NCBI GenBank assembly: GCA_015057635.1
Contig: SVEB01000050.1
Span: 5,682 to 69,681, forward strand
Origin: Lachnospiraceae bacterium
GTDB taxonomy: Bacteria; Bacillota; Clostridia; Lachnospirales; Lachnospiraceae
Direction: 5' to 3'
DNA: 64,000 bases
The stretch's first letter is position 1. Each line of letters begins with the position of its first letter. The notes beneath the pieces were generated by a model. That model did not search any database and had not been told where the DNA came from. It saw only the letters and a program-made list of their open reading frames with translations. A program made the translations under genes and the position numbers. Of the stretch, positions 10,240 to 60,407 are shown piece after piece.

Positions 10240-10499
10240 GAAATAGCCCGAGATGTATGCGGTAATACAGCCGCATACCATGCCGACGTGCTTTGCACAA
10301 TTTCTTTTCGGATGTTCGGACACATAAGCAAATAAAAGAGCATAGGCTTCTTTGCCTATCAGACAGGAATTTACTGTCTGATAGGCGAAGAAGCCTATGC
10401 TCTTTTTGTTCGTTATAAGTCGGACACTCCGGAAAAAATCGCACAAGGCACGCCGGCATGATATGCGGCTGTATTACCTTGCGTATTCCGGCCCATTTC
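10240..10499. repeat. Long palindromic intergenic element, copy A (REPIN/MITE-like)
   Basis: Arms ggtaatacagccgcata (10261) ... tatgcggctgtattacc (10478); core ctatcagacag(10356-10366)-gaattta-ctgtctgatag(10374-10384). Confidence 0.9.
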
Positions 10500-10646
10500 C
10501 TGTATGGCGAGAATGCTGTATCCAAAAGCAAATCCAATGAACAGATACGTAAGGACAAGACGAATAATCAAACAAACAGGTATAAAATCAACATAGCTAA
10601 TCAAGTACGATACCAATATGCAAAGAAATAAAGATGAAACAAACGT

Positions 10647-13379
10647 TTAAGCGTCCTGCTGCTCGTCTAGTATAGAGATAAGGGAATCGTACTCGTAGTG
10701 GTCGAGAGCGGATGTAAGGCGGGATAGAAATGACGCCTCGGCCGAAGGATAGGTGAAACGGGCAAGATCGGTTAGATACGCCTGAAGAAGGGCGTAGTCT
10801 TTTTCCACGCAGGCTTTTTTCAGACTTAGATAGGTGACGGATGAGATATGGGATTCTTTCCTTTCAGGCAATGGACAGGTTTCTTTTAGGTAGGTTTTCA
10901 GAATTGCCTCTAATGATTCCTGGTTCACTGGCTTTAATAGATACGCACAAAAGCCGGATGCATCGGTGAGTTGCTGGGCTTCAGAACGTTCTAGCGCAGT
11001 CATTAGAATGACCGGAGTGGTTCTGTTCTTGGTCTGGGAATCCGTCTGAATCTGATTTAGGGTTTCTTCTCCATTCAATCCCGGCATTAAGTGATCCATA
11101 AATATTAAGTCATAGGCTTCCTGTCTGGCATGCTTGATGGCTTCCTCTCCGCTTTGCACCGTCTCCACTTTTAGCCCATATCGAGCTAAAAATCCGGCAG
11201 CCACATGCAGATTGAGCGGATTGTCATCTACTACCAGTATGTGCCTTTCCATGCATGCATTATGCACTTCACCCTTTTGCGAAACCTTAACGATCTCCTC
11301 TTTTGTCTTTCTGCCGTATAAGATTGAAGACAATTCCATCTGAAGATCAGGCAGATAAATTTCACGGCATGGATAACACCGATGCCCTTTCTTCTCATCA
11401 CATTCCAAGATCATATATATCTTTTCTTTAGCCGGATACAGGTTGGGATTCTCATTTTTCTGCATGAACAGTTTTCTTCTGATAAATACCTTATCATACT
11501 GTCCGTAATAATTTTCCGGAAAGGATGGAAGGATCTCGCATTCCGCATTATAAAACAGGAAAATAGCACGAATGGTTTCCGCTATTCTAGGATCGTTCTC
11601 AATTACAAGAACTGACTCCTCACATTCCTTTTTTTCTCCGTAAATTTCTGTCTTTCCCGCTGTTTTTTGTGGAAGATAGATGGTGAACTTCGTTCCGGTC
11701 CCATAGATGCTTTCTACACCGATCCTGCCTCCCATCAATTCAGTGAGATTCTTCGAGATGGAAAGTCCCAATCCGGTCCCTTTGATATGTCGGTTCTTAA
11801 CCGAATCGACCTGACTGAATACCCCAAAGATATGCTCACAGTCTTCTTTCCGAATACCGATTCCGCTATCTTCTATTTCAATCTTTAATTCTACCATTCC
11901 ATCATCTGTCTTTCCCGTAATCATCAGACTGATAAAACCCTGATTGGTAAACTTCACTGCATTTCCAAGCACATTGATCAGAATCTGGCGTATCCGCACA
12001 TCGTCTCCAATTAAAACATCCGGAATATTTCGATCTACATATACAAGAAAATGGATTGGCTTGCTGCTAAGGCGGATGCTGATCATATGAACTACATCAT
12101 TTATCAAAGTGGAGAAAGAATACTCCGCCTGTACGATTTTAAACATTCCGGCTTCAATCTTAGTGAAATCAAGAATATCATTGATGATCTCCAGCAATCC
12201 TTTTCCTGCACGATTGATACTGCTTACATCCTCTTTTGCCTCACTTGAGAGCGGACTCGTTAACAGCATCTCACTCATCCCAATTATTGCATTCATCGGA
12301 GTACGGATCTCATGACTCATATTCGCTAAGAAAGCACTCTTTGCTTCATTGGCACGTATTGCTTCCATACGGCTTTCATTCAATTCCTCAATAATCTTTA
12401 GCTTATCCGTCATATCCGTAATGATGATCATTTTTCCTAATGGCTGTTTATACCGATCATAGATTATGCTGATGCTTAAGTCACATTTTGCCCCATTGAT
12501 CTTGCATTCCGCTTCTTTTCCCCCTTGATTCTCATCAAAGTAAAATAAGTCCTCTAACTTCTTCTTTGCAATCTGATCGGATGGCATATCAAAAAACTCC
12601 GTTGCACTTGTATTGCAGATCTCAATTTCCCCTTCCTCTGTTAATAGAAGAATTGGTATCTTTACAACGGAATAAATATATTCCGATACATTTCGAACTG
12701 TAATCCTGGAAGCATAATAATGGCCTGACCCAAGATATAAAAACAAAGTGCAGCAAAATTGATCCAATCCACTCCTGCAAATTATAATACTTTCTCCCTT
12801 TACCTCCAGATAATCACCTACCATAGCAGCGATCAGCATACCGATTGCTAACAAACAAGAGATTCCCATCTGCCTTTCTCTTTTCTTTTTTGCCCGCACG
12901 ATTCCATGAATTGAAAGAATCAGCAAAATAAGAAGCATGCCGCAAAAATATATGGTGCAAACACGAAAACCAATTCCATCACGTTTTAAAAACATGGGAT
13001 TCGATGAATCACGATAAAAATAAAATCTATTTTCTGATACTACAAATGGATATGTCACCAGTCCCCCCAAAACAGCAATCCTTCTGATCAGTTTTTTTGT
13101 TCTCTCCTTTATCGGAACCCATTCTGTAAATGCAAGAGATACTGCACTCCAAAATATATAGACTCCGGTCCATAATACAGACTGAAAGAAATCACTTGAT
13201 TGATACGTACACCTTGCTAACACTATCAGCGAAAAGTTCCAAATGCTACTTGCCAGGCATAAAATACCCAAGTACCAGTTTGCTCCTATATTCTTTTCTT
13301 CACTTAAAAACATATGGATCGCGAATAGCATAGTGATCACTGCCATTCCATCCAGTACTAGCTCCTCTATCGAACTCAA
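10647..13379 (-). CDS. Hybrid sensor histidine kinase/response regulator (N-terminal multi-TM, PAS-like, HisKA, HATPase, REC)
   Basis: FLANMSHEIRTPMNAI, QILINVLGNAVKFT, EDSGIGI, GTGLGL, ILVVDDN...DLIFMDHLMP. Confidence 0.93.
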   Translation of the reverse strand: MSSIEELVLDGMAVITMLFAIHMFLSEEKNIGANWYLGILCLASSIWNFSLIVLARCTYQSSDFFQSVLWTGVYIFWSAVSLAFTEWVPIKERTKKLIRRIAVLGGLVTYPFVVSENRFYFYRDSSNPMFLKRDGIGFRVCTIYFCGMLLILLILSIHGIVRAKKKRERQMGISCLLAIGMLIAAMVGDYLEVKGESIIICRSGLDQFCCTLFLYLGSGHYYASRITVRNVSEYIYSVVKIPILLLTEEGEIEICNTSATEFFDMPSDQIAKKKLEDLFYFDENQGGKEAECKINGAKCDLSISIIYDRYKQPLGKMIIITDMTDKLKIIEELNESRMEAIRANEAKSAFLANMSHEIRTPMNAIIGMSEMLLTSPLSSEAKEDVSSINRAGKGLLEIINDILDFTKIEAGMFKIVQAEYSFSTLINDVVHMISIRLSSKPIHFLVYVDRNIPDVLIGDDVRIRQILINVLGNAVKFTNQGFISLMITGKTDDGMVELKIEIEDSGIGIRKEDCEHIFGVFSQVDSVKNRHIKGTGLGLSISKNLTELMGGRIGVESIYGTGTKFTIYLPQKTAGKTEIYGEKKECEESVLVIENDPRIAETIRAIFLFYNAECEILPSFPENYYGQYDKVFIRRKLFMQKNENPNLYPAKEKIYMILECDEKKGHRCYPCREIYLPDLQMELSSILYGRKTKEEIVKVSQKGEVHNACMERHILVVDDNPLNLHVAAGFLARYGLKVETVQSGEEAIKHARQEAYDLIFMDHLMPGLNGEETLNQIQTDSQTKNRTTPVILMTALERSEAQQLTDASGFCAYLLKPVNQESLEAILKTYLKETCPLPERKESHISSVTYLSLKKACVEKDYALLQAYLTDLARFTYPSAEASFLSRLTSALDHYEYDSLISILDEQQDA

Positions 13380-13400
13380 ATCATCACTCCCACTCTTTGC

Positions 13401-14759
13401 TTATAAATGTATGAAAACATGCACCAGCAAGTTTTCGATTGCAATCCAAAATGCTACTTTCCATCCGGGTTTCAGCTCTTCTTTTCTTCCTGCAAGCAGG
13501 TTGAGAATAATATATAGAAATATTCCATTGAGAGCACTTTTGCCTACATCATAAGATAGACCAATTGCAATAAATGTGTAGGCTGCAGAGACTGCTTCAA
13601 TCCTTTTATGCCAGTCAACCTCCCTAATAATTTTCGTAATCAGTATCCCGGAAACAACAAGTGCTGGTGCCATTACAAATGATTCACTTTTTTTAAAGAA
13701 GTCATGAAAAATCAGGCTGACACCAAAACATAATGCGGTCACAAGAGTGGACACCCCGGTTCTTCCTCCTGCTGTGGTACCCACCACACTTTCTGTATAG
13801 GCAGTCACGCTGGAGGTACCAGCACATCCACTGATGATGCTGCCAACCCCATTCACAAACACGCTTTTTTTTATACTGCTCGGATCAAAATTCATATCAT
13901 CCTGCTGTACAGGACGCAACACTGCTGTTATTGTAGCATTCGCATCAAAAAAATGAGTGACTGTCATTACAAACACCGAGATAATCAGGCTATGCACCGT
14001 CCCTATATTCTGAAACACTTCGGAAAAGTGTGGAAAATGAAATGCATTATTGCGAATCGCACCTAATGAAAACTCAGCTTTTGCAGCCATTTGCTCTAGC
14101 ATCTCTGTTGGAATATTGTGCTTTTTTAAAACAGATAACAAAATCCCCACTATCGCCGCTACAAGCAGGCTAATTGTGAGGGCACCTTTTCTATAAAACT
14201 TTCGAACAATTACATAAGCAAAAAAAGCTGTAAAAAGACCAATTGTCTGCCCAGTCAGGGAAATACCAAAAACATTATACCGCTCCAGGGATGAACTATG
14301 ATCAAATATGTAAGTAAAATGAATTCCTGATCTGAGTGCCCCCAGTCCAACCCCTGCAATAATTGCTTTCTTTATTCCATCGGGTACAATCCCCAATAAT
14401 TTTTTATACCAGCCCCCACATACAGCAGCAATAATAATAATTCCAGATAAATAGGTGGCAAGCAGTGCCATCTTCCATGAGCCGCCATACTCTAAATTTA
14501 CAATTATCACAAAGTAATAATTCATGCTAAGACCGGGTGCATATGCAATCGGAAGCTTTGTATAAAACGCACTGATTAACATTGTAAAAACAGAGGACAC
14601 TACCGTAGCGACCAGCACTCCGTCATATTCCATTCCACATCTGCTTAAAATAATTGGATTTACAACAAGAATATAGGCCATTGAAACAAATGTTGTGATT
14701 CCGGACATGATTTCTGTTTTTAAGTCTGTATTATGTAATTTCAAGTTAAAAAAATCCAT
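13401..14759 (-). CDS. NCS2/AzgA family permease (divergent)
   Basis: KTEIMSGITTFVSMAYILVVNP, YAPG, YTES...GGRTG; about 12 TM segments. Confidence 0.88.
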   Translation of the reverse strand: MDFFNLKLHNTDLKTEIMSGITTFVSMAYILVVNPIILSRCGMEYDGVLVATVVSSVFTMLISAFYTKLPIAYAPGLSMNYYFVIIVNLEYGGSWKMALLATYLSGIIIIAAVCGGWYKKLLGIVPDGIKKAIIAGVGLGALRSGIHFTYIFDHSSSLERYNVFGISLTGQTIGLFTAFFAYVIVRKFYRKGALTISLLVAAIVGILLSVLKKHNIPTEMLEQMAAKAEFSLGAIRNNAFHFPHFSEVFQNIGTVHSLIISVFVMTVTHFFDANATITAVLRPVQQDDMNFDPSSIKKSVFVNGVGSIISGCAGTSSVTAYTESVVGTTAGGRTGVSTLVTALCFGVSLIFHDFFKKSESFVMAPALVVSGILITKIIREVDWHKRIEAVSAAYTFIAIGLSYDVGKSALNGIFLYIILNLLAGRKEELKPGWKVAFWIAIENLLVHVFIHL

Positions 14760-14836
14760 AAGTCCGTTTCCTTTTCTCTTTCCCCGTAAAAGAAGAATAT
14801 AGTCTTTTCTTGCGGATAAATGTATAATTTTGGTAC

Positions 14837-14865
14837 ATTATAGCATTCTCAGGGGATTTTTTCAA
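14837..14865 (-). promoter_or_regulatory. Putative sigma-A promoter of the NCS2-kinase operon
   Basis: Minus strand TTGAAA-N17-TATAAT. Confidence 0.55.
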
Positions 14866-15198
14866 CATTAAAAGAGAGTTTTCCGACTTGCCCGCTTTCA
14901 GGCAAAACGAGGCCATTGAGCACCGGTCTGTCTTTTAATTCAGACTTCGCAGCTGATTTCCTCCCCTCAAGCTTTCCCTCCGCATTTCTCAGAGAATTTA
15001 AAATGAACAGGAAGTCAAGACTTTCCTGTTCATTAAAATCAACTACAAATTCTGAGTTAAACACTCATCACATCCTTGCAGATACAAATCAGCTTTTCTA
15101 TCGGTTCAGACATATATTTATCTTTATGATAGAAGTCCTTTGTGCAAAAACTGTTTTTCCAGCAGTCTATCCATTTCATTTAATCGCGATGACCGTTT

Positions 15199-16524
15199 CT
15201 AGCAGTTGCTTTTCTTTCCGATCAAAACTGCAACTCCTAATGTTACCGCTTCGGTAACCGGCATAACGAACCAGATTCCGGATGCTCCAAAAACTGCAGG
15301 CAGTATCATCATCAGAATAACACTTAAGATTAATCCGCGTAGCAGACAGATTGTAAGCGCCGGGATTGGCTTTACAATTGCCTGATAATAATTGCTTAAA
15401 AACATGTTAAGGGCACACCCGATAAAGGATACAAAATAAATACGGATGGCAGCCGGTGCTAATGCCATGATTTCATCGGTTGGATGGATAAAGACGCGCA
15501 CCACAGTCTCAGGCAATAAAAGACCAAGAAGTACAAAAAGCCCTCCAAGTATGGCTGCTGATACAAGCGCGATTCTCTTCACTTCCTTGACACGATCCAT
15601 CTTTTCTGCACCATAGTTCATTGTGATTAAAGGCTGTGCTGCCTGAGAAATACCATTTCCAAGAGACATCACAATAATCGCGGTATTGGCAATAATGCTG
15701 TATACCGTAACCCCAATATCCGCTAAGTAAATTAAAATCTGACGGTTGAATACAAATGTCACGATACCGTTTGCCATTTCAATTAAGAAGCTGGAAAGAC
15801 CATTCTGAAAGATTCGTCCAAGACTTCTAAAGGAAAATCCGTGTAGATCCACTTTAAGCGTATTCTGCTTGCAAAAGAAATGACTGCATAAAATCGTACA
15901 GGTAATAACAGAGCCTAACACGGTAGCAAAAGCTGCTCCTGCCATCCCCATTCTCATCGGGAATACAAAGATAAGATCCAGGATAATGTTTAAGATACCG
16001 CCTGTGATAACAGCTGTCATCGCCAGTTTCGGTGCATTATCATTACGAATAAATGCCTGCAAAAATGTAGAGAATACAAAGAACGGTGTTCCGATCATAA
16101 ACACTTTTGCATACTCCCTTAAAAGTCCCATTGTAGCATCCGTACCACCTAGAAGGGTAAGGACCTCATCAAAGTACATAATTCCCAGTCCATCATAAAT
16201 CAAAATCATCGCAATGCTTGCAAATAAAGCAGTTGTGAAGAATTCCTTTGTCTTCTTATGATCTCCTGCCCCTTTTGAGACAGCCATCATAACAGAACCG
16301 CCAACGCCAAATAACAGCCCGGTTCCAAAGAATATGGTAAATAACGGAAGAATTAAGTTTAATGCCGCAACCGCATTGGCCCCTAATCCTTTTCCTACAA
16401 TAATAGTATCTGCCAGTACATAGATTGATGTCACTAGCGTCGCACTGACAGACGGTACTAAGTACTTAAAGAACAATCCTCGTATCGGATCCTGTAATAA
16501 GTCAGGTTTTTTGCGTGTTTTCAT
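15199..16524 (-). CDS. MATE family efflux transporter
   Basis: YVLADTIIVGKGLG, AFIRNDNAP, NIILDLIFVFP...GAAFAT; about 12 TM segments. Confidence 0.93.
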   Translation of the reverse strand: MKTRKKPDLLQDPIRGLFFKYLVPSVSATLVTSIYVLADTIIVGKGLGANAVAALNLILPLFTIFFGTGLLFGVGGSVMMAVSKGAGDHKKTKEFFTTALFASIAMILIYDGLGIMYFDEVLTLLGGTDATMGLLREYAKVFMIGTPFFVFSTFLQAFIRNDNAPKLAMTAVITGGILNIILDLIFVFPMRMGMAGAAFATVLGSVITCTILCSHFFCKQNTLKVDLHGFSFRSLGRIFQNGLSSFLIEMANGIVTFVFNRQILIYLADIGVTVYSIIANTAIIVMSLGNGISQAAQPLITMNYGAEKMDRVKEVKRIALVSAAILGGLFVLLGLLLPETVVRVFIHPTDEIMALAPAAIRIYFVSFIGCALNMFLSNYYQAIVKPIPALTICLLRGLILSVILMMILPAVFGASGIWFVMPVTEAVTLGVAVLIGKKSNC

Positions 16525-16625: not shown

Positions 16626-16669
16626 CAGTAAATGTCGTAATATAATAAAAAAAGAAGAAAGGCTTATTT

Positions 16670-27974: not shown

Positions 27975-28297
27975 CTTAATCCCTCCCGCAGAACTTGTAT
28001 ACATGAATACTTTCTATAATAAATACCATGTATTCCAAAATTAATCAAATACTTACTTTAAATCAATACCACGTCACAGCGTCACATTGCTTTCTCGCTC
28101 CATCTCGACTGCCTTTATTTATACTGTCTTCCACTCCTCTATCCTGCGCTCAATGCCTCCCCTCATCAATCCCACTCCCTGTTCCTTTGCATCCATCCCC
28201 TACCTTCAAAATCCTTCCCCCCGCTCCAAAGTCCTTCCAACTCTCTTTAAAATCCTCCCCAAACCCTTCCTCCGGTATTCTCAGTAAACAAGCGAGC

Positions 28298-28512
28298 GAA
28301 TCGGCCAAGGAAAGAAGAAGAACCTGTATGCGTGGTCGCCTAGTTCCAAATGTCCGGCTCATAACGAACAAAAGACTCTGCTTCCTTTGACTATCAGACA
28401 GTGTATTTTACTGTCCGATAGTCAAAGGAAGCAGAGTCTTTTATTCATGTGTCCGAACATTTGGAACTAGGCGGTCGTGCCTACAGGCTGTCCCTCTTTC
28501 CTTGTCCGATTC
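28298..28512. repeat. Long palindromic intergenic element, copy B
   Basis: Core ctatcagacag(28391-28401)-tgtatttta-ctgtccgatag(28411-28421); perfect 17-bp stem gactctgcttcctttga / tcaaaggaagcagagtc; outer arms reach gaatcggccaagg / ccttgtccgattc. Confidence 0.9.
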
Positions 28513-28526
28513 CCTATTCCGTATTT

Positions 28527-30200
28527 CTAGAACATCTTCTTTGAAAGCTTCTCCACGATGTCGGCAACACAGCCGGATTCGAATGGAGTTTTAAGGCCTA
28601 CTGCCGGAAGCATATTTACGAAGAAATCGCTTGCGGAAAGTTCGCAAAGTTTTAAATAGCTAGCCCATGCTGCCTTATAATCCTCATCCATCCATACCTT
28701 GTACTGGAATGCACATGTCTGTGCAAGGCAGTAATCAATATAGTAGAATGGCACCTGATAGATATGGGATTGTTTCTGCCAGAAACCGCCATTTGCCATA
28801 AACGAATCATCACCGTAGTCAAGATGTGGTTTATATTCCTTCTCTAATTCCACCCATGCTGCTTTTCTTTCGGCTGGTGTCATCTCCGGATTTTCATATA
28901 CAACATGCTGGAATTCATCTACTGTACAGCCATAAGGAATAAATGCTACTGCATCTTCAATATGCATCTCAACATAATCCTTCGTTCTGTCACCGAAGAA
29001 TAACTTCATCCAAGGCTCTGTAAAGAATTCCATAGACATGGAATGGATTTCTGCTGTCTCCATTGTAATTTCGGCATGTTCACGAATTGGATCCTTGCCG
29101 GAGATATAGCCCTGGAATGCATGACCGCATTCATGTGTGATAACATCAATATCACCGCTGGTTCCATTAAAGTTTGCGAAAATAAATGGAGAATTATATT
29201 TTGGAAGGTAGGTCATATAGCCGCCGGCTCTCTTGGTCTTTCTTCCTAATACATCAAATAATTCATTCTCTGTCATGAAATCAAAGAATTCCTTTGTTTC
29301 CGGTGACAGTTCTGAATACATCTGCTGTCCATCTTTCATAATCTCTTCCGGTGTTCCGGTTGGTTCCGGATTACCATTTTTAAAATAAACGCTTTCATCA
29401 ATTGCAGAAAGCTTATCGAGTCCAAGACGTTCTCTTCTCATATCATGAAGTTTTTCTGCAAATGGAACCCAGTACTTCTTGACCTGGTCACGGAAGTTTT
29501 TAACCATTTCCCTATCATAGCAGTTACGTCCTATACGATAGTATCCAAGTTCCACATAGTCCTTGAATCCTAACTCTTTTGCCTGTTTGTCACGGTTCTT
29601 TACAAGGCTGTCATAAATACGGTCAAGCGCTTCACCATTTTCCGCCATCCACGCGGAACGTTTTGCATGTGCCTTTTTACGAACTTCACGATCAGAGTTA
29701 TTTAAGTACTTTCCTAATAAGGATAAGTTAAGAGTCTCACCTTCCCAGTCAATCTTAGCACTTGCGATCAGCTTTGTATATTCGGTTGTTAAAGCATTCT
29801 CTTCCTGCATTAATGGGATTAATTTTTCATCAAAGGACTTAATTCTCAATTCCATATTCTTAAATGCAACTTTGCCAATCACGCCTTCTAAATAATCACG
29901 GTATGGTGAGTTATAAAGAAGCATCATATAATTAACATTTAAGCTGTCAATCTTTGGTCCAATTTCATCATAGTAATCATTCTCTGCGGAATAGAACTCA
30001 TCCTGAGTATCGATATCGTAACGGATATGAGCAATCGTCATCAATGTATCGATTTCAGAGGTCAGCGCATAATATTTCTTATGCACTTCGAACTGCTCTT
30101 CCCCACTTTTCGCCGCTTTGAATTCTTCCATTAATTCATTCATCTTTGTCTCCACGTCCTCAAACTGGACGCGTTTGTATGGCATATCTTTAAATTTCAT
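28527..30200 (-). CDS. M3B family oligoendopeptidase (PepF-like)
   Basis: HECGH zinc motif, ETAEIHSMSME, FYYIDY. Confidence 0.93.
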   Translation of the reverse strand: MKFKDMPYKRVQFEDVETKMNELMEEFKAAKSGEEQFEVHKKYYALTSEIDTLMTIAHIRYDIDTQDEFYSAENDYYDEIGPKIDSLNVNYMMLLYNSPYRDYLEGVIGKVAFKNMELRIKSFDEKLIPLMQEENALTTEYTKLIASAKIDWEGETLNLSLLGKYLNNSDREVRKKAHAKRSAWMAENGEALDRIYDSLVKNRDKQAKELGFKDYVELGYYRIGRNCYDREMVKNFRDQVKKYWVPFAEKLHDMRRERLGLDKLSAIDESVYFKNGNPEPTGTPEEIMKDGQQMYSELSPETKEFFDFMTENELFDVLGRKTKRAGGYMTYLPKYNSPFIFANFNGTSGDIDVITHECGHAFQGYISGKDPIREHAEITMETAEIHSMSMEFFTEPWMKLFFGDRTKDYVEMHIEDAVAFIPYGCTVDEFQHVVYENPEMTPAERKAAWVELEKEYKPHLDYGDDSFMANGGFWQKQSHIYQVPFYYIDYCLAQTCAFQYKVWMDEDYKAAWASYLKLCELSASDFFVNMLPAVGLKTPFESGCVADIVEKLSKKMF

Positions 30201-48076: not shown

Positions 48077-48287
48077 GGTCCCCTGAACGCCAATAGGCCG
48101 CGGGACTTGGAGCATCGGATGTTCGAAATGTCCGGCTCATGACGCACAAAAACAGCAATATTCTTTGAATAGCAGACAATTTATTGTCTGATAGGCAAAG
48201 AATATTGCTGTTTTTGTCCGCTCATGCGTCCGAACATTTGAACATCCGATGCTCCAAGTCCCGCGGCCTATTGGCGTCCAGGGGACC
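48077..48287. repeat. Long palindromic intergenic element, copy C
   Basis: Core atagcagacaa-ttta-ttgtctgatag (48169-48194); near-perfect outer arms of about 50 bp, ggtcccctgaacgcc...gttcgaaa / tttgaac...caggggacc. Confidence 0.92.
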
Positions 48288-48317: not shown

Positions 48318-48968
48318 CTATTTAGCAGCTCTTGCAGCAGCAACAGCAGCTACGAATTCCTGTGCAGTAGCTGTGATCTTAGCGTAATCGCCAGTCTTAG
48401 CACCTGCTGTTAAGTTGCTGCCTGTACCGATAGCGAAAGCACCAGCCTTTAACCATTCACCCACGTTGTCGATAGAAACACCGCCGGATGGCATGAACTG
48501 ACCCTGTGGAAGTGGGCCTCTGAAAGAGCTGATTGCAGATGGTCCAACAAGGTTACCTGGGAAGATCTTGATAACGTCGCAGCCAAGTTCAAGAGCCTGA
48601 ACAGCTTCGGTTGGAGTCATAACGCCTGGTAATACAGGTACTCTGTAACGGTTACATAATTTAATTGTTTCTGGGTTTAAGCTTGGAGCAACAACATAAG
48701 CAGCACCTGCTAAGATTACGGCTCTAGCTGTTTCTGGATCTAATACTGTACCAGCACCGATCACAACTTCCTTATTGTCTTTATATTTTTCAACCATAGC
48801 TTTGATGATTTCAACAGCGCCTGGAACTGTCATTGTGATTTCAATATAATTGATACCACCAGCGATGATAGCGTCGATGATCTTTTCGCCCTGTTCTTTG
48901 TTTTCAGCACGAACTACAGCTACTAAACAGTCTTTGTTCATTTTGGAAATAATCTGTTCTTTTGTCAT
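48318..48968 (-). CDS. eda: KHG/KDPG aldolase
   Basis: AVVRA, IEITMT, IGAGTVLD, IKIFP, FMPSGGVS. Start at MTKEQII (48968). Confidence 0.92.
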   Translation of the reverse strand: MTKEQIISKMNKDCLVAVVRAENKEQGEKIIDAIIAGGINYIEITMTVPGAVEIIKAMVEKYKDNKEVVIGAGTVLDPETARAVILAGAAYVVAPSLNPETIKLCNRYRVPVLPGVMTPTEAVQALELGCDVIKIFPGNLVGPSAISSFRGPLPQGQFMPSGGVSIDNVGEWLKAGAFAIGTGSNLTAGAKTGDYAKITATAQEFVAAVAAARAAK

Positions 48969-49032
48969 TTCTAAATTCTCCTTTATCATATACACTGATC
49001 CGCGATATAAATCATATGGCGGCTACTCCATT

Positions 49033-54095: not shown

Positions 54096-54201
54096 GAACT
54101 TCACACCTTCTCTTTCCATATTTTGTATACACTATAGTAATATCACAATATGGAAGGAAAGTCCACGTGAATTTTCGTATTTTTTCGTAAATTATAAAAT
54201 G

Positions 54202-54229
54202 AAAAAAGTCCCATTGACATGGGACTTCT
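54202..54229 (-). terminator. Intrinsic terminator after the antiporter
   Basis: aagtcccat-tgac-atgggactt with an A6 run. Confidence 0.7.
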
Positions 54230-54270
54230 TCAAACTCTCTTTTACTTATCTTCTTCTGATTAATCTAACA

Positions 54271-55452
54271 TTACGAGCGCTTCGTAAGCAGCTTCTGATA
54301 GGTCTTATCCACAAGAATCGCTCCAAACGGCGCGGTGATTAAAATAGCTAAAACCGCCACAGTAAGCACCTGATTCCCGCAGGCAAGCCCCATCGATAGC
54401 GGTATCGCACCGATTGCCGCCTGTACGGTCGCTTTAGGCATATAAGCAAACATGCAGAACATTCTCTCCCTGCCGCTTAACTCTGTCTTTAACAAGCACA
54501 CATAAACACCTGCCATTCGCACCAGCAAGGCAAATGCTACAATCAGAACTGCTGCCAGACCGGACTGAAGTGCATAATTTAAATCTACGGTTGCTCCGAC
54601 TAATACGAAAAGAAGCACCTCTGCCGCTCCCCATAAAGCGTTATACTGCCCTGCAAGGCTTTCCGCCATCTTCTTTTCCTTTTGACGGATTAAAATTCCC
54701 ATGCTCATAATGGCAAGCAGACCGGACATCGGAATGATTCCTTCTAACCTTGTCTCACATTCCAATAACAGGAAAGAAATACTTAATACAACTAAAAGCT
54801 TTGCTGTATCCCGCATTGGAAGTCTTTTTAAAAGAGAAGATACCACCAGCCCGGAAACAATACCTGCTAAAATTCCTAATACGATCGACACCGGTATGGT
54901 AAGAAAGCTCATCACATTAAGCTTTCCCGTCTGTGCAAGTCCGGTAAATGCGGTAAACACCACAATAACAAATACATCATCCACAGATGCTCCTGCTAAA
55001 ATCAGCTGTGGGATGCTTTTATCTGTCCCATATCCATCTTCCATAAGCTTAATCATACGCGGCACGATAACTGCCGGTGATACCGCTGCAATGACACTTC
55101 CCATAATCGCCGCATCTAATGTGCTCATCGGCAGCACTTTGGGTGCAATAAAGATGACAGCAAGCATCTCAAAACATGCCGGCACAAAGCACATGAGCAC
55201 AGCCGGACGCCCTACTTTCTTTAAATCTGCAACATTTAAAGATAATCCCGCTCTTGTGAGGATGATGACCAGCGCAAGCCTTCTTAAGTCCCCTGCAATA
55301 GACAGAATGGATGCGTCGAGCAGATTGAATGCATAAGGGCTTACTGCCATCCCCACTAAAATCATTCCAAGCAGGCTTGGAAGCTTTAACTTTTGAAAAA
55401 TCAGGCCTGCCAGCAAACCAAGTAAAAATATTAGTGCAAGACTTGTTAACAT
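54271..55452 (-). CDS. Cation:proton antiporter (CPA1, NhaP/NHA2-like)
   Basis: LRRLALVIILTRAGL, AAVSPAVIVP, GASVDD, PKATVQAAIG. Confidence 0.92.
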   Translation of the reverse strand: MLTSLALIFLLGLLAGLIFQKLKLPSLLGMILVGMAVSPYAFNLLDASILSIAGDLRRLALVIILTRAGLSLNVADLKKVGRPAVLMCFVPACFEMLAVIFIAPKVLPMSTLDAAIMGSVIAAVSPAVIVPRMIKLMEDGYGTDKSIPQLILAGASVDDVFVIVVFTAFTGLAQTGKLNVMSFLTIPVSIVLGILAGIVSGLVVSSLLKRLPMRDTAKLLVVLSISFLLLECETRLEGIIPMSGLLAIMSMGILIRQKEKKMAESLAGQYNALWGAAEVLLFVLVGATVDLNYALQSGLAAVLIVAFALLVRMAGVYVCLLKTELSGRERMFCMFAYMPKATVQAAIGAIPLSMGLACGNQVLTVAVLAILITAPFGAILVDKTYQKLLTKRS

Positions 55453-55522
55453 ATTCTCCTCTTTCTACAATCTTTGTATTTCATCACTGTATTTTTATCA
55501 TTGTGCATCTATTCAAAACAAA

Positions 55523-55858
55523 TCATTCAGGACCATTTCCCGTCAGATAGACAATCAGATCCTTTTCGTTAAAATCAGGTATGTATCTCTTTTTCATATA
55601 ATCTAACTGACGCGGAGTCGCTATCTTATAATCTTTTCTCCCTATTTTCCCTGTAATATCGTATAACTCATTTTGAAATTCAATCGCACAGTGTTCTCTT
55701 TCTTTATTAAACATAATAAAGGAATTCTTCATATGGGAATGCAAATAGGAAGCAAAGAAATAACAGCCTCCATGAAGAAATAATTCATTCACTGCATCTT
55801 TCCCGAAATACCGCTGCAATGCTTGCACGGTTGAAGCATAAATCTCATAATCACACAA
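55523..55858 (-). CDS. Hypothetical 111-aa protein with a possible Cys-His-Asp triad
   Basis: FLHGGCYFFASYL...EHCAI...LYDITG. Confidence 0.7.
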   Translation of the reverse strand: MCDYEIYASTVQALQRYFGKDAVNELFLHGGCYFFASYLHSHMKNSFIMFNKEREHCAIEFQNELYDITGKIGRKDYKIATPRQLDYMKKRYIPDFNEKDLIVYLTGNGPE

Positions 55859-56003
55859 TCAACTCATTCCTTTCATCACAACCTGCCAACAATCAGCCCA
55901 ATCATTTGGATTCTTTTATTTTGTTTAAACAAAGATATAAAGGAAAAAGATGCTATGTCGTTCACATGCATCTTTTCCCACTCTATTTTGAAGATACGAC
56001 TGT

Positions 56004-56420
56004 TTATTCAGCCTCCATCTCAAACATCTCTTTCGCAATCTGAGCCGCATCATAAATGCAGCCTGAACAAGTGCGAAGAATCTTCTTTGTTTCAATCCCT
56101 TTCAACTCCTTACAGATAATGGACTGATTCATCTCTTTAAAACGTTCTAAAATTTCTTTGGATTCTAAATAAGTCTTTCCTTTTGAATTCGGACTTTCCA
56201 GATTGCAGGTGCTTGTTTTTAATCCTGCAAGCATAACAGCACCTGAGATAGCACCACATACGCCTTCGAGCCCTCCCATGCCGGCGCCGAATCCTTCTGC
56301 TATCCGGAACATGGTCTCTTCATCCACTCCTACTAAATCCGCATAGGCACATGCCACTGCCTGGCAGCAGTTATACCCTTTCTTATGGTTCTCCATCGCC
56401 TTTTGTACTCTTTCTTCCAT
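56004..56420 (-). CDS. C-GCAxxG-C-C family putative redox protein
   Basis: YNCCQAV, GVCGAISGA, ICKEL...CSGC. Start at MEERVQ (56420). Confidence 0.9.
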   Translation of the reverse strand: MEERVQKAMENHKKGYNCCQAVACAYADLVGVDEETMFRIAEGFGAGMGGLEGVCGAISGAVMLAGLKTSTCNLESPNSKGKTYLESKEILERFKEMNQSIICKELKGIETKKILRTCSGCIYDAAQIAKEMFEMEAE

Positions 56421-56621
56421 CTTTCTCTCCTTTATCGTATAACAATCTCTCCTCTGCATTTGGTTCTATACAGATTCAATCCTGTCAATCATCTTTTCAT
56501 TTTAAGCTGTTTTCTTTCTTACATCCTATAATATTATATTTTTTATTTTAACACTTTTTCCGCTGTATGTGTACTTCCATTTTCAAGTTACATTCCTTCC
56601 GACATTCGATTGTCTTTTCCC

Positions 56622-56930
56622 CTATCCGATCATATCCGCAATTTCCTTTTTCGGAACAAATCCAATGGACCGTTTCACTTCTTCTCCGCCCTTTACCACT
56701 AAAACAGTCGGAATGCTTAATACACGGTACTGTCTTGCCAAATCCGGCGCCTCATCCACATCGATCTTGCATACCTTTACCGTATCATTCATTTCATCGG
56801 ATATCTCCTCAATAATTGGTGAAATCATTCTGCATGGCATGCACCATTTTGCAAAGAAATCAAGCACAACTGTCTTGCTCTCCTTTAATACCTCCTCTTT
56901 AAAATTCTCACTGGAAATGTGAACTACCAT
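56622..56930 (-). CDS. trxA: Thioredoxin
   Basis: LDFFAKWCMPC, KIDVDE, SIPT. Confidence 0.92.
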   Translation of the reverse strand: MVVHISSENFKEEVLKESKTVVLDFFAKWCMPCRMISPIIEEISDEMNDTVKVCKIDVDEAPDLARQYRVLSIPTVLVVKGGEEVKRSIGFVPKKEIADMIG

Positions 56931-57114
56931 AACAAAACTCCCTTCAATCTGTTTCTAATTTATGATATGAGTATATCTGATTTTTTTGACAGCTTCGGTG
57001 ACTTAATCACACAATAAAGCCTGTTTCTTTGTTTTCCCTCCACCATTCTTGCCCTTTTACAAAAAAGGATGGTCATCATGAATTTAAGAGTGCATCCTTT
57101 CAAAACGCCGCTAA

Positions 57115-57186
57115 ATAAAAAATACCCTGGATGTGTGCTTCTCTGTCTCTTGATAAAGCTTAGAGCACATCCAAGGTATTTTTTAT
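57115..57186. terminator. Long terminator-like hairpin downstream of the MCP gene
   Basis: ataaaaaataccctggatgtg ... cacatccaaggtattttttat. Confidence 0.65.
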
Positions 57187-57294
57187 AATCTGCTAAAATA
57201 AAGAAGTCTTGCTTTCTTCCGGTTCCATTTTTGTAACTGTTTCATCAGACAAGATCCCATCCATAGCAGCATATTTCATAATTTATATGATTTT

Positions 57295-58743
57295 TTATTT
57301 TACGATTTCCTTTACTAAAACTTCCATGTTATCCACCTGGTTTGCCATTTTGGCAACCGCTGAATTCTGATTTTCCATGGACTTCGCCACTTCTTCAATC
57401 ATAGATGAATTTTCTTCCGATATCTGCGCCAGATCACTTACTTCTGACAGCACAACATCCATTCCCTTCTTCACATCCGTGATCAGTGAGAATTCCTCTA
57501 CAATCATACGGTTTGATGCTTCAATTGAATCCGAGATTTTTGCGAATCTGGAGTAAAGTACTCCTAACTCCTTGCTTCCGTCTTCCACTGTCATACTTTC
57601 GCTCTCTACGCGTTCATGCACCTCTTCAATGGCAGTAACAAGTTTCTCTAAAATACTTCGGATTGTAGAAGATGCATTCTTGCTCTGTTCAGACAGATCA
57701 CGAATCTGATCCGCAACAACCGCAAATCCTTTTCCTGCCTCTCCTGCTCTTGCCGCCTCAATAGACGCATTTAGGGATAACAGGTTTGTCTGCTTGGCAA
57801 TCGCATCAATCTCAGCTAAAATGTTCTGAATCTTACTGGCATCCTCTAACAGGATTTCTGTCGCATTTGCGGTCTGCGTTACCGTTTCCGTAATCTTGTT
57901 CATAGACTGCATAACCTGGTCAGCTTCTTTGTTTCCGCTGGTTACATTCTCAAGAACTGCTTCATAACCTTCTTTTAATTCCTTTGCAATACTAAGATTC
58001 TGATCAATCTTATCGCTTGCATCGTGAATCTGCATCGTCACCTTATTCATGGACTCGGATGTCTTTTCCACTAAACCAGTCATTTCTTTTGCAGATTCCG
58101 TAACCATATTCGCCTCATTGGAAAATTCATTCATATTTGTGACACTGACTGCGATTACCTCATTCAGCTGTCCTGCAAGCTTCATTGCAGTTTCCGTATG
58201 TTCTTCTACCAGGGCTTTCTGCTTTTCGGCTTCTTCTGTCTTTGCCTCACTTAACAGTATAATTTTCTTTCCTCTTAAAATTGAAACATATAAAAATGCT
58301 GCAAGGGCACCATAAATAAATATCTGAAATAATACATTTTTTATGTCACAGTCAGGGCCGCCGATGATCTCAGGGTTCACACACACTGCAACAATAGCTG
58401 CCGTCATATAGATAGCAGTATGCACGATTAATATGATCGGTTCAAAATAATAAGTAACAAACCCAAGCACCACAAACACCGCAAATGATGCACGCTGATT
58501 TCCTCCCTGTACCATGGAAACCACTAGAGTTGCAAGCGCTATCGTGGTTGGCATTAAAATTCCCTTTACCATATCTGAAATCTTTAAACGATACAAAATA
58601 GTGGCAACTACAGATGACCCAACAATAGCAGCGCAACCATAATAACTGCTGGCTGACATTCCATAATTCAGGAAACTGATAACACTCAGTACTACACAGC
58701 AAATCCAAATGAAAATCAGATTTATCTTATGTATTCTCTTCAT
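57295..58743 (-). CDS. Methyl-accepting chemotaxis protein with multi-TM N-terminus
   Basis: [34 protein letters not shown] signalling hairpin. Confidence 0.95.
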
Positions 58744-59038
58744 TTTTTACTCCTTTATATAAAAGTGATTTTCTTTGTTTATAATAGTCCATTCCATAAC
58801 ATATGCCTTATAGCTCATACGTACTATATTTCAATGAACAATATAAAACAGTTTAAATTAATTCCATTATACAACACTAATTCCATTATTTCAATATTTT
58901 ATATCAATATAGTGCATTTTTATCTCGTTTATGGCAGATTGCAACTATGCTGCTTTACTGCTAAAAAACTGTCTTGGAAGGCTTTTTCACTTCTCTGCTT
59001 CTTCACATCTTTCACTTGCCGTCTTAAAAATAAACAAA

Positions 59039-59080
59039 AAAATACCTAAGGTCCATACGTATATGGAACTTAGGTATTTT
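59039..59080 (-). terminator. Terminator of tRNA copy 1
   Basis: aaaatacctaaggtccata-cgta-tatggaacttaggtatttt. Confidence 0.75.
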
Positions 59081-59116
59081 CTCGGGTTGGGCTGTTCGTA
59101 AATCACGATCAATCAA

Positions 59117-59188
59117 CAGCTCGTAGGGGAATCGAACCCCTGATTCCGCCGTGAGAGGGCGGCGTCTTAACCGCTTGACCAACGAGCC
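59117..59188 (-). tRNA. tRNA-Glu(CTC), copy 1, CCA not encoded
   Basis: GGCTCGTTGGTCAAGCGGTTAAGACGCCGCC-CT-CTC-AC-GGCGGAATCAGGGGTTCGATTCCCCTACGAGCTG cloverleaf. Confidence 0.96.
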
Positions 59189-59201
59189 TCGCTACTCCTT
59201 T

Positions 59202-59230
59202 ATGATATACTATTTAAAAGGAAATTGCAA
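59202..59230 (-). promoter_or_regulatory. Promoter of tRNA copy 1
   Basis: TTGCAA-N17-TATCAT. Confidence 0.7.
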
Positions 59231-59267
59231 GCACTTTTTTAATTTTTTTCTATTTTTTGAAAAATAA

Positions 59268-59309
59268 AAAATACCAAAGATCCATACGTATATGGAGCTT
59301 AGGTATTTT
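59268..59309 (-). terminator. Terminator of tRNA copy 2
   Basis: aaaataccaaagatccata-cgta-tatggagcttaggtatttt. Confidence 0.7.
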
Positions 59310-59345
59310 CTCGGGTTGGGCTGTTCGTAAATCACGATCAGTCAG

Positions 59346-59417
59346 CAGCTCGTAGGGGAATCGAACCCCTGTTTCCGCCGTGAGAGGGCGGCGTCTTAAC
59401 CGCTTGACCAACGAGCC
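59346..59417 (-). tRNA. tRNA-Glu(CTC), copy 2, CCA not encoded
   Basis: Identical to copy 1 except one variable-loop base (GGAAACAG vs GGAATCAG). Confidence 0.96.
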
Positions 59418-59430
59418 TTGCTACTTCTTT

Positions 59431-59459
59431 ATAATATACTATTCAAAAGGAAATTGCAA
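59431..59459 (-). promoter_or_regulatory. Promoter of tRNA copy 2
   Basis: TTGCAA-N17-TATTAT. Confidence 0.7.
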
Positions 59460-59569
59460 GTACTTTTTTGATGTTTTTTGTATTTTTTTGAATAAGTGAG
59501 GGAAAGTTTAGAAGAAAGCCCCCCACTTTTTTCTATAATATATGGAAAGTTCGTATTATTGTGATATGA

Positions 59570-60193
59570 TTGTATTATCCGTTAACTCATTATAAATGGA
59601 AGGAGAATCAATATGCAAGTACCGAAAAGTTTAAGGGTTCGCTTACAAAGTTTCATGTAGATGAAGATGTGATTTCACAGATTAACGAAGGTTTTGAAGA
59701 TGTTACGGACAAAGCTCCGAAAAAGAAGAAGGCAGCTTATTTTAAACATGCCGTCGATGTCATGAACGAACAGATGGATCTGGATAAATTCCAGGAAATC
59801 TTTGAATGGAATTCCTGTTGTAAGAGCGGAGCAAGAGAAAAGGCATCCAAAGCCTTTGCCAAAGAAAATGCGAACGCTACTCTCGATGAAAAATTAGAAA
59901 AGATCAAATCTGTCCCTTATATGGGACAGCCTGTCTATAATCATAACGGGACAATCACTACATATGCTGTCAGCTGGTTCGATGGTGAGAAATACCAATG
60001 CGCCTGCTCAAACTTCAGCCACCTCAAACGGGATTACGACATATCCAAAAACTACTGCTTCTGCTGTGCCGGCCACTTTAAATATCACTACGAAATCATG
60101 CTGGGCCTCAAACTAAAAACACTAGAAATCGTCTCCTCCCCTTTAGACAGCAACGGCAAAAACCCTTGCGTCATCCGCTACCAGATCCTCTAG
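59570..60193 (+). CDS. DUF6144-like Cys-rich protein; 5' end uncertain, possibly frameshifted
   Basis: SCCK, CACS, CFCCAGH, P.DS....C pattern. The TTG start at 59570 has no RBS; the ATG with a strong RBS (59613) is out of frame. Confidence 0.7.
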   Translation: MYYPLTHYKWKENQYASTEKFKGSLTKFHVDEDVISQINEGFEDVTDKAPKKKKAAYFKHAVDVMNEQMDLDKFQEIFEWNSCCKSGAREKASKAFAKENANATLDEKLEKIKSVPYMGQPVYNHNGTITTYAVSWFDGEKYQCACSNFSHLKRDYDISKNYCFCCAGHFKYHYEIMLGLKLKTLEIVSSPLDSNGKNPCVIRYQIL

Positions 60194-60216
60194 GATAAAA
60201 ATAAGAAAGCCGGCTA

Positions 60217-60407
60217 AAAAAGCAGCTGTGGGCGGCAGGGGATATATTTTTTCAGCTGTACGGCATCAAGGCGGACAAAAAGCAGGAGAATCTCTGAATA
60301 GCAGACAGTGCTTTCCTGTCTGATAGTCGGAGATTCTCCTGCTTTTTGTCCGAGCTTGTGACGAACAGCGAAAAATATATATCCTCCACCGCCCACAGCT
60401 GCTTTTT
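60217..60407. repeat. Long palindromic intergenic element, copy D
   Basis: Core atagcagacag-tgctttc-ctgtctgatag (60298-60326); stem gcaggagaatctctga / tcggagattctcctgc; outer arms aaaaagcagctgtgggcgg / ccgcccacagctgcttttt. Confidence 0.92.

Follow-up and report, generated by a model that had tools for sequence, protein, structure and literature searches.

A family of REPIN-like compound palindromes placed downstream of genes in two sister species of Lachnospiraceae

Introduction

Dispersed palindromic repeats such as repetitive extragenic palindromes (REPs) and their doublets (REPINs), Correia elements and ERIC are best known from Proteobacteria, and their spread is tied to REP-associated tyrosine transposases (RAYTs) or to transposases of insertion sequences (ISs). 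Hairpin-forming MITEs (miniature inverted-repeat transposable elements), among them Correia/NEMIS in Neisseria, ERIC/IRU in enterobacteria, bcr1 in the Bacillus cereus group and RUP/BOX in pneumococcus, are small and intergenic and form long RNA hairpins; often they are transcribed together with the 3' end of a gene, and they can stabilise the transcript or end it. Correia elements have been reported to be substrates of RNase III as duplex RNA, and binding of polymerase or topoisomerase has been reported for the REP/BIME sequences of E. coli. REPINs combine conserved REPs with a less conserved spacer in which compensatory changes are common, can adopt an alternative clover fold (PMC3116915) and are inherited vertically over long times (10.1101/2021.07.10.451892). 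A survey of REP/RAYT systems (PMC3733652, Di Nocera et al. 2013) does not mention Firmicutes, and it describes CGTC-tagged and untagged REPs that seem to lack a dedicated transposase and often occur as head-to-head dimers forming large hairpins or cruciforms. Here we analyse a family of long palindromes first seen in a 64,000-nucleotide stretch of a Lachnospiraceae bacterium (GenBank GCA_015057635.1, contig SVEB01000050.1; hereafter the window), and we follow the family through the host genome and its relatives.

The window corresponds to G000:C35:5682-69681, where G000 is the host's 4.23-Mb draft genome (125 contigs, 40.9% GC, 94.6% complete). Its closest comparison is G001, the metagenome-assembled genome (MAG) CALZIE01, 'uncultured Lachnospiraceae bacterium', a sister species that is 78% complete and whose genes are ~85% identical to those of the host. 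Beyond this sister, 12 congeners and 27 further relatives were screened, as were 400 other genera of the family. Unit statistics refer to 190 analysed units, and gene-context counts to 185 copies with crude but cleaned gene calls. Because the element is asymmetric, every copy can be oriented; its + strand is defined by that asymmetry, and 5' and 3' sides refer to the oriented element.

Results

A family of about 210 copies in the host genome

Delimited by gapped alignment of their arms, the window holds four palindromes, A to D, with arm identities of 0.83–0.91 (Table 1). An earlier reading of the window made without database searches (the sequence-only reading) had placed all four correctly, with A somewhat shorter than the 10240-10499 it proposed, and it had the order of motifs right. 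Its expectation that the motif recurs elsewhere was borne out: the strict motif TATCAGACAG-N5-10-CTGTCTG occurs 162 times in the host genome, counting both strands, against 0 for a control read backwards, and a looser core, C[AG]GACA-N2-14-TGTC[CT]G, has 209 sites, 197 of them within a palindrome. About 190 copies retain an intact core, some 20 more are module pairs whose core has mutated beyond recognition, and ~30 modules stand alone. The total of ~210 copies amounts to roughly one per 20 kb genome-wide, sparser than the one per 15 kb suggested from the window, and the 190 analysed units make up 43.7 kb, or 1.0% of the genome, at 53% GC.

This abundance is confined to a small lineage. The strict motif gave 73 matches in the sister species, none in the 12 congeners and 27 further relatives, and a single match, taken as chance, across the 400 other genera of Lachnospiraceae. 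Among GTDB species genomes the arm module is recurrent only in CALZIE01, with isolated single matches in a few unrelated genomes. Congener G007 has no long palindrome in 400 kb, compared with 12 in 434 kb of the host, and no analogous family. Metagenome contigs gave 0 matches to the family, and phage and plasmid collections gave none. An Rfam scan of the window at the gathering threshold returned two tRNAs only, and when element C was compared with Rfam by E-value the best matches were generic hairpins at 17–34 bits, below their thresholds of 48–92 bits. The element can thus be described, as it had been from the window, as a dispersed, non-coding and lineage-restricted hairpin family, found only in the host and its sister among the genomes screened and without a counterpart in the collections searched.

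Conserved blocks alternate with variable but paired blocks

Palindrome length is peaked (median 216 bp, interquartile range (IQR) 205–251, maximum 469), and each unit is a compound palindrome with ~70 conserved positions, in which conserved blocks alternate with blocks that vary in sequence but pair. On the + strand the order is boundary motif, outer arm, module, A tract, variable stem and tip, followed by the complements in reverse. The boundary motif (GACGGAC or TTTAGGRG), kept in ~20% of copies, lies 7–8 nt outside the left edge, and the outer arm is an internal block of fairly constant length, ~45 nt, that is copy-specific and G-rich on the + strand. Next come ATGTTCGGACGCATGAGCGGAC-AAAA, a variable stem of ~10 nt and the tip, with consensus TCTTYGRCTAT-CAGACAG-GAAARCA-CTGTCTG-CTATTCAAAGA, of which a second rendering is TCTTTGACTAT-CAGACAG-GAAAGCA-CTGTCTG-CTATTCAAAGA. 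Beyond the tip, the variable stem's complement, TTTTGTTCGTCATGAGCCGGACAT and the outer arm's complement complete the unit. The A tract of the 5' arm is answered by a T tract in the 3' arm (T frequency 0.75–0.92 at stem positions 22–25), and stem positions 1 and 4, beside the core, are conserved non-pairs, paired in 28–31% of cases. As an exemplar, element C folds as a single long hairpin on each strand (-175 and -166 kcal/mol, z about -21 and -23).

The module is itself a mini-dyad, TGTYCG-loop-CRGACA (TGTTCG...CGGACA), so the small dyad that had been noticed in the arm motif is real; its closing pair is G.U on the + strand only, the other strand having an A.C mismatch. The word C(G/A)GACA and its complement form three dyads per unit, two in the modules and one in the tip. 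Module loops define subfamilies with CATGAG, with CGAGAG and of a 'GTCACAAGCTC' type that includes element D. In one subfamily conservation continues past the palindrome: GATTTAGGGG stands 5' of it and a small hairpin, ACAATGCGTTTC-n-GAAACGCATTGTGA, 3' of it. Of the 190 copies, 43 have this hairpin, in every case 3'.

Several smaller repeats occur near the elements. The small hairpin has 59 loci in the host genome (including C14:~8560, C28:~12680 and C84:~28180), 17 of them without a nearby element, and at C11:89053 it is kept in the sister species where the big palindrome is absent. A second repeat of ~38 bp, dispersed or tandem, lies beside some elements and came to light as extra BLAST matches of outer flanks (Table 1). 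In the element on contig C32 of the sister (locus L047, 855-1000), a small palindrome, gaactgtaccccataatctaaac...gattatgggatacagttc, is nested at the T tract, which may be a different small hairpin element targeting that tract.

The two arms change together

Sequence information drops to 0.02–0.4 bits at stem positions 12–21, where 88–97% of pairs are Watson-Crick. All four pair types appear at nearly every stem position (mutual information 1.15–1.73 bits), and the 190 copies hold 189 distinct variable-stem 10-mers. Overall, 93.3% of variable-stem positions pair; substituting the partner arm of a different copy lowers this to 31.8 ± 1.1% (34.9% at most over 1000 shuffles), and sliding the partner by 1–2 columns lowers it to 25–33%. 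The description of these stems as largely unrelated to one another yet self-complementary agrees with this. Pairing extends outward as well: beyond ±45 nt of the centre, arm alignments still score 46 in the median, compared with 8 for random positions in the genome, and by BLAST the outer arm of 110 of the 190 copies matches nothing in the genome save itself and its own partner.

For eight orthologous pairs we aligned four sequences each, the left arm and the reverse complement of the right arm from both species, and counted 149 concerted substitutions and 6 concerted indel columns beside 141 single-arm changes; at L062/C32, for example, a substitution and a compensated 1-nt insertion, each of them on both arms, separate the orthologues. 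Mismatches between arms are mostly transitions. Orthologue identity between the two species is 0.57 in the variable stem and 0.59 in the outer arms, both of which may be depressed by alignment error, compared with 0.68 at codon position 3 and 0.92 at positions 1+2 of the flanking genes; the constrained blocks are at 0.94 (A/T tracts), 0.85 (modules) and 0.82 (tip stem). The variable blocks thus seem to change at roughly the neutral (synonymous) rate though more than 90% of their positions are paired.

Template switching is documented as both a maker and a keeper of stems (PMC8794818, PMC7202029). Near-neutral arms with matched indels suggest that one arm has been copied from the other by such switching, rather than that independent mutations compensated each other, since compensatory selection would be expected to run slower than neutral and without matched indels. 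The concerted change therefore points to templated correction of the quasipalindrome type between arms. The proposal that stems are under structure-only selection is at best part of the picture, given the near-synonymous divergence and shared indels, which fit templated copying.

Whole units were copied before the two species split

Paralogues at unlinked loci (Table 1) are ~85% identical over the whole palindrome, variable blocks included, and their similarity ends at the palindrome ends; in the CGAGAG subfamily (C86:47315 vs C102:8996) it ends at the boundary motif and the small hairpin. Since variable blocks are shared between paralogues, the whole unit must have been copied, and these blocks are internal rather than target-derived; the same unit stands at unlinked loci between unrelated flanks, as mobile repeats do. 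An origin of the variable blocks by fold-back copying of the target is contradicted by their fixed length, by the boundary motif and by their sharing among paralogues and orthologues, and the guide-like origin once floated for the stems found no backing, as outer arms return only themselves and their partners in BLAST searches and have no phage or plasmid matches. No direct repeat that could be a target-site duplication is visible at the ends of related paralogues. The proposed comparison with empty sites could be made between the two species, and none of the sites lacking an element was clean enough to reveal a target or a duplication.

Some 90% of copies are orthologous between host and sister. 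Nine of 11 host copies and ~12 of 17 sister copies are shared at orthologous sites, and most sister copies with both flanks mapped have host counterparts. At the exceptional sites the host has a collapsed or decayed remnant in two cases, a minimal central hairpin in one and an ordinary intrinsic terminator in another. As for the other two of the 11 in the reciprocal test, one has collapsed in the sister and one has no counterpart there. Shared orthologous sites imply that most insertions predate the species split and that little has moved since. Copies decay by deletion between the two directly repeated modules, which leaves an outer stem capped by a single module (Table 1), and also by loss of an outer arm (C32), by mutation of the core or by reduction to the central hairpin (C65:5449). 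We also looked for strain-level variants through contigs encoding two neighbour proteins; one protein had no match and the other led to an identical contig.

Elements follow stop codons where terminators would stand

The 5' flank holds the end of a gene in 153 of 185 copies (83%), the element's + strand being the sense strand of that gene, and the distance from stop codon to palindrome edge has a median of 19 nt (IQR 9–31; at most 40 nt in 119 of the 153). The median distance on the 3' side is 138 nt to a gene that ends there and 336 nt to one that starts. Of the copies, 42% lie between convergent genes, an arrangement found in 12% of all intergenic regions; few lie between divergent genes, and in tandem contexts 74 of 96 copies (77%) are co-oriented with the genes. 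Neither this stop-codon polarity nor the terminator-equivalent position formed part of the sequence-only reading, whose interpretation is partly supported by the present analysis.

Each unit presents a stem-loop followed by a T-rich tract downstream of a stop codon, as intrinsic terminators do. At one orthologous site the host has an ordinary intrinsic terminator where the sister has an element, and at another the central A-stem-T hairpin is all that is left. Taken with the ordinary terminator found at an orthologous site and with the decay to terminator-like hairpins, this shape and position make it probable that the units act as bidirectional intrinsic terminators and 3'-end structures. At no fewer than a tenth of operon ends they seem to stand in for ordinary terminators.

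No cognate transposase found in host or sister

The sequence-only reading had invoked mobilisation by a RAYT/HUH enzyme, and this part was not supported. We searched for PF01797 (Y1_Tnp, which includes RAYTs) in G000, G001, G002, G007 and G011. A six-frame search of the host found two loci only, both of them IS200/IS605 units with TnpB whose subterminal hairpins resemble neither the modules nor the core; the sister (78% complete) gave none, and the element-free congener G011 gave three matches. Genes bracketed by element pairs are housekeeping genes (serS, lepA, eno, hsp20, trk), none of them RAYT-like, and module pairs, orphan ones included, never bracket a transposase-sized gene. Taken together, the PF01797 survey, the IS-end alignments, the genes between elements and the orphan module pairs disclose no RAYT/HUH link in these assemblies, and without a RAYT-linked gene, membership among REPINs fails on its defining link. 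One of the two IS200/IS605 units (C34:2849-4629, L001) is intact and single-copy, with a TnpA of 142 aa and a TnpB of 443 aa, and lies 370 bp downstream of the pckA-associated element; its left-end and right-end (LE/RE) hairpins are unrelated to that element.

A strand-specific compositional halo surrounds the elements

Throughout the genome, base composition shifts with strand on either side of the elements. Along the oriented top strand, the 3' side has C down to 0.12 and G up to 0.30 over several hundred nucleotides, with GC skew reaching +0.44 against a baseline of +0.10, and the 5' side has C up to 0.24–0.26 for ~150 nt. Expressed by strand, an excess of G marks the strand that leads 5'->3' outward from the element, over at least 1 kb on the 3' side and ~150–200 nt on the 5' side. 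In the window the halo is seen at 59570-60193 and 60481-60705. Third codon positions share in it: C reaches 0.33 in the last 40 codons of genes ending at the 5' side, against 0.19 in all genes, and 0.37–0.41 in the last 60 codons of genes that end at the 3' side on the other strand, while same-strand genes starting on the 3' side are a mirror image (G3 0.30–0.33, C3 0.10–0.14). The mirror image in downstream genes of the same strand means that the halo is a property of the DNA strand rather than of the mRNA, and presence in these co-oriented genes likewise opposes an mRNA-specific (rut-like) signal. The gain in skew is about +0.23 at local baselines of both +0.18 and -0.17 and is found at 77% of tested elements; as the halo follows element polarity at either baseline, an artefact of replication strand or gene strand is ruled out. 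Gene ends without an element have no halo.

Read on the strand that leads 5'->3' outward from the element, two-fold codons have shifted chiefly by A>G and to a weak degree by C>T, with C/(C+T) at 0.52–0.59 in genes reading toward the element (0.28 genome-wide) and G/(A+G) at 0.61 in genes reading away from it (0.51). In the last 25 codons of polC, third-position C is 0.52 compared with 0.00–0.20 in 11 element-free congeners, the changes being mostly sense-strand T>C, and judged against these 11 congeners the halo at polC is the derived state. Polarised changes in enolase run in the predicted direction, in numbers too small to count. Besides the local halo, polarised polC and eno changes reveal that the host–sister lineage has drifted generally by T>C and A>G, and the host genome as a whole is at 40.9% GC compared with 34.4% in 400 kb of congener G007.

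At shared sites the two species have the same composition, and divergence is 0.165 inside the halo against 0.15–0.16 outside; the halo is therefore old or maintained, and a zone of active hypermutation is ruled out, as divergence is not raised. Skew correlates weakly with palindrome length (r=0.19). Strong purine skew is common in the host genome (668 tracts), so non-coding purine tracts are by themselves weak evidence. Purine-rich repeats with almost no C, tandem or of low complexity, are frequent in the 3' flanks, examples being (GAAGA)n, (GATAA)n and GGAGAGGCGAGGGAGGAAGTG (Table 1), and the orthologous flanks in the sister are likewise purine-rich with a different sequence. Outward repair or strand-displacement synthesis, outward transcription, and selection on RNAs reading into the element are ideas for what might cause the halo.

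The four copies in the window

All four window copies obey the stop-codon polarity rule. A co-oriented gene of the Gpr1/Fun34/YaaH family (9652-10212) ends 49 nt upstream of element A, while the genes at 28527-30200 (-) and 48318-48995 (-) end 12 nt and 31 nt from the 5' edges of B and C, and polC (60481-63990, -) ends 74 nt from the 5' edge of D. The orthologue of B in the sister has the same conserved blocks and different variable blocks. Elsewhere in the window, the 3' end of cobQ (1810-1840) carries ggatttcggacgagtcggacgggatgg, with two CGGAC words. Five host contigs start or end within elements (C82:39, C86:84, C92:120, C105:61 and C110:127), which suggests that the repeats break short-read assemblies of such genomes.

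Table 1. Positions of palindromes, their parts and related features (window coordinates unless a contig is named; contigs are those of the host genome except where the sister species, G001, is named)
Feature	Position	Strand	Details
Element A, whole palindrome, 218 bp	10261..10478	+	Core CAGACAG-N7-CTGTCTG at 10360-10380
Element B, whole palindrome, 221 bp	28295..28515	-	Core at 28395-28417
Non-coding tract 3' of element B	28081..28294		Example of 3'-side halo; C-rich and G-poor on window +, purine-rich on element +
Element C, whole palindrome, 211 bp	48077..48287	-	Arm identity 0.91
C, outer arm	48077..48127		Copy-specific; matches only its partner 48238-48287 in the genome
C, conserved module and A/T tract	48128..48152		ATGTCCGGCTCATGACGCACAAAAA; mini-dyad TGTCCG...CGCACA; 3' module after T tract on element +
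C, variable stem, left half	48153..48161		cagcaatat; pairs with 48202-48210 (atattgctg)
C, conserved tip stem around core	48162..48201		TCTTTGAATAG ... ATAGGCAAAGA; 82% identity between host and sister orthologues
C, central hairpin tip	48173..48190		CAGACA-loop-TGTCTG; family + consensus CTAT-CAGACAG-GAAAGCA-CTGTCTG-CTATTC
C, variable stem, right half	48202..48210		Copy-specific; family-wide ~0 bits, 93% Watson-Crick
C, other conserved module and tract	48211..48237		TTTTTGTCCGCTCATGCGTCCGAACAT; reverse complement of 5' module ATGTTCGGACGCATGAGCGGACAAAAA
C, partner outer arm	48238..48287		Pairs with 48077-48127
Element D, whole palindrome, 191 bp	60217..60407	-	Module subfamily 'TGTTCGTCACAAGCTCGGACA / TGTACGGCATCAAGGCGGACA'
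3' end of polC, in 5'-side halo of D	60481..60705	-	Third-position C shift
Paralogue pairs at unlinked loci	C34:2513 vs C65:173514; C81:58635 vs C120:6996; C86:47315 vs C102:8996		
Single-module collapsed remnants	C25:90054; C34:~9750; G001 L047		
Purine-rich 3' flanks	C25:~152,950-153,100; C58:~12,700-13,000; C43:~5,100-5,400		
Loci of the ~38-bp repeat	C8:29245; C8:49123; C84:28226; C118:40-180; C14:8190-8340		

Discussion

A proposed REPIN-like, terminator-like repeat with an ancestral spread

The account that we favour, by a modest balance of the evidence, is a lineage-restricted, non-autonomous family of REPIN-like compound palindromes that spread in an ancestor, has since been inherited almost entirely vertically, and is terminator-like. 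Under this account whole units would have been copied around the genome of the common ancestor of the two sister Lachnospiraceae species, and the central hairpin, with its A tract, long stem and T tract, would serve as a bidirectional terminator and 3'-end structure for the gene ending ~19 nt upstream. The three C(G/A)GACA dyads are probably candidate protein-binding sites: we propose that they are conserved amid drifting blocks because some protein binds them, which might be a host factor or a lost mobilising enzyme. Complementarity of the variable blocks would be kept mainly by template switching during replication, with selection on the hairpin secondary, and the family would now be essentially immobile, eroding by inter-module deletion, arm loss and reduction to a plain terminator hairpin.

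Several observations weigh against this account. No binding protein or mobilising enzyme was found in host or sister. A simple terminator scan left the elements unflagged, possibly as it accepts only short uninterrupted stems, and the outer arms lie beyond the T tract, where a terminated RNA cannot use them, so they call for a DNA-level cause or a role in read-through. No clean empty site is available, because the only close relative is ~15% diverged. In the outer arms G.T mismatches number 182 and A.C mismatches 325; with no G.U excess on the + strand, they do not speak for selection on how + strand RNA folds. Gene conversion among copies, rather than function, could account in part for the constraint on the conserved blocks. 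Finally, the halo is unaccounted for by a terminator-like, REPIN-like element.

It is the halo, above all, on which a contrary view of the element can be built, namely that it works first of all at the level of DNA, as a polar site of entry for repeated processing whose mutational footprint would be the halo and whose by-product would be termination. We consider this unlikely; candidate processes would be nick or hairpin cleavage with outward 5'->3' repair or strand-displacement synthesis, or the binding of polymerase or topoisomerase. A halo that tracks element polarity and not gene strand or baseline skew, the derived composition of polC with the A>G bias of two-fold codons away from the element, and concerted outer-arm evolution, a DNA-level process, all suit it; divergence that is not raised in the halo, the same composition in both species, the weak correlation with length, the many purine tracts elsewhere and the failure to find an enzyme do not, and for transcripts reading into the element selection, for instance for C-rich, G-poor RNA ahead of the hairpin, might do the same work. 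A more explicit version, which we offer with equal diffidence, is that of a polar cis-site at which DNA synthesis or processing recurrently starts and runs outward, rewriting synonymous sites including those of polC over a reach of at least 1 kb on the 3' side and ~150–200 nt on the 5' side. Nick or hairpin cleavage would be followed by Pol I-type or other error-prone synthesis that is mainly A>G in the outward direction, and the arms would stay complementary through that same template switching linked to replication. Were this so, the elements would impose a local origin-like switch of GC skew at ~200 places in the genome, and they would be the first bacterial dispersed repeats known to leave a directional mutational footprint on their surroundings.

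Less probable again is a structured RNA family in which 3' untranslated region motifs would act as stabilisers that bind a protein, as regulators or as RNase III fail-safe sites for read-through and convergent transcripts, and the palindromy of the DNA is secondary. Position speaks for it, the + strand being the sense of the upstream gene in 83% of copies with the element ~19 nt past the stop codon, as do the module mini-hairpin that closes with G.U on the + strand and A.C on the other, the conserved blocks kept in both species, and the ~100-bp perfect duplex in read-through RNA, an obvious substrate of RNase III. Yet neither variable stems nor outer arms have an excess of G.U over A.C on the + strand, efficient termination at the central T tract would leave half of the structure untranscribed, 42% of copies lie between convergent genes and are read on both strands, compensated indels and neutral-rate arms favour DNA templating, and Rfam has no match. 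A true REPIN/RAYT system, with REP doublets moved in trans by a single-copy HUH (Y1) transposase that recognises single-stranded DNA hairpins, we regard as improbable. The parallel is close in architecture, compensatory changes, clover fold, vertical inheritance and slow decay (PMC3116915; 10.1101/2021.07.10.451892), the conserved non-pairs at positions 1 and 4 and the asymmetry would suit strand-specific recognition of single-stranded DNA, and at 94.6% and 78% completeness a single-copy gene could have been missed. Weighing the other way, both Y1_Tnp genes of the host belong to IS200/IS605 units with TnpB and unlike ends, the sister has none and an element-free congener is positive, no RAYT-like gene lies between element pairs and no module pair surrounds a gene of transposase size, and Firmicutes go without mention in the survey of such systems (PMC3733652). 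Hardly credible, to our mind, is the notion that variable blocks are made at insertion, either as fold-back copies of the target or as guide-like foreign spacers: 110 of 190 outer arms do match only themselves and their partners and the variable stems are all different, but unlinked paralogues share their variable blocks, orthologues diverge gradually, block lengths are fixed, the boundary motif lies outside the outer arm, and phages and plasmids give no match.

Significance

The two species hold a Firmicute family as abundant as proteobacterial repeats, yet one for which no RAYT or IS transposase was found. With ~90% of copies orthologous, the family is a natural experiment on the evolution of long hairpins, and its concerted, neutral-rate arms support template switching over slow compensatory selection as the keeper of stems (PMC8794818). 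If arm evolution is templated, covariation in such elements is not proof of a functional RNA. If the halo is mutational, it offers a rare in vivo readout of DNA beside a hairpin. In practice, the family matters for the annotation of terminators in Lachnospiraceae genomes and for metagenome assembly, where contigs end in copies.

Comparison with known systems

Ordinary intrinsic terminators resemble the elements in their A tract, long GC-containing stem and T tract after stop codons, and in their enrichment between convergent genes; their sequences, however, are mutually unrelated and their stems are 5–15 bp, whereas the elements share ~70 positions within a 200-bp palindrome. Integron attC sites lie in arrays beside an integrase, where gene cassettes end, whereas the copies here are dispersed at about one per 20 kb beside housekeeping genes such as polC, pckA, eno, serS and lepA; the integrase was not searched for. 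With MITEs the elements have in common that they are small, non-coding, dispersed, intergenic and able to form long hairpins. In place of conserved terminal inverted repeats matching a full-length IS, however, they have copy-specific termini with a short one-sided motif in ~20% of copies, and no target-site duplication could be seen and no parent IS was found. CGTC- and GTAG-tagged REPs are stem-loops of 20–40 bp with the tag at one end, whereas here CGTC occurs only inside one module's loop, the module termini are TGTYCG and CRGACA, and the unit is 216 bp.

REPINs and REP/BIMEs are the nearest described systems, ahead of REP families that have no RAYT and hairpin MITEs, with bidirectional terminators last. 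The conserved ends and variable centre of REPINs are here reversed, the tip being conserved and the outer arms variable, and no cognate, flanked single-copy Y1 gene was found in two incomplete assemblies (94.6% and 78%). Compared with the REPINs of Pseudomonas, Enterobacteria and Neisseria, moreover, the family has a Firmicute host, conserved blocks at mid-arm and tip, a second variable paired block outside the modules, a tight stop-codon polarity and a flanking halo. The resemblance to a REP doublet pointed out in the sequence-only reading was nonetheless apt, in view of the conserved REPs, the variable, compensated spacer and the alternative clover fold of REPINs (PMC3116915). Hundreds of extragenic copies, inverted REP-like mini-palindromes with modules on both arms flanking a central hairpin, a variable hairpin spacer and a choice between clover and hairpin folds are found in both, as are vertical inheritance, decay to singlets and remnants, and proposed roles in termination and mRNA stability. 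By this comparison the family is an apparently enzyme-orphaned REPIN-like repeat that is now part of the gene-end architecture of a small lineage.

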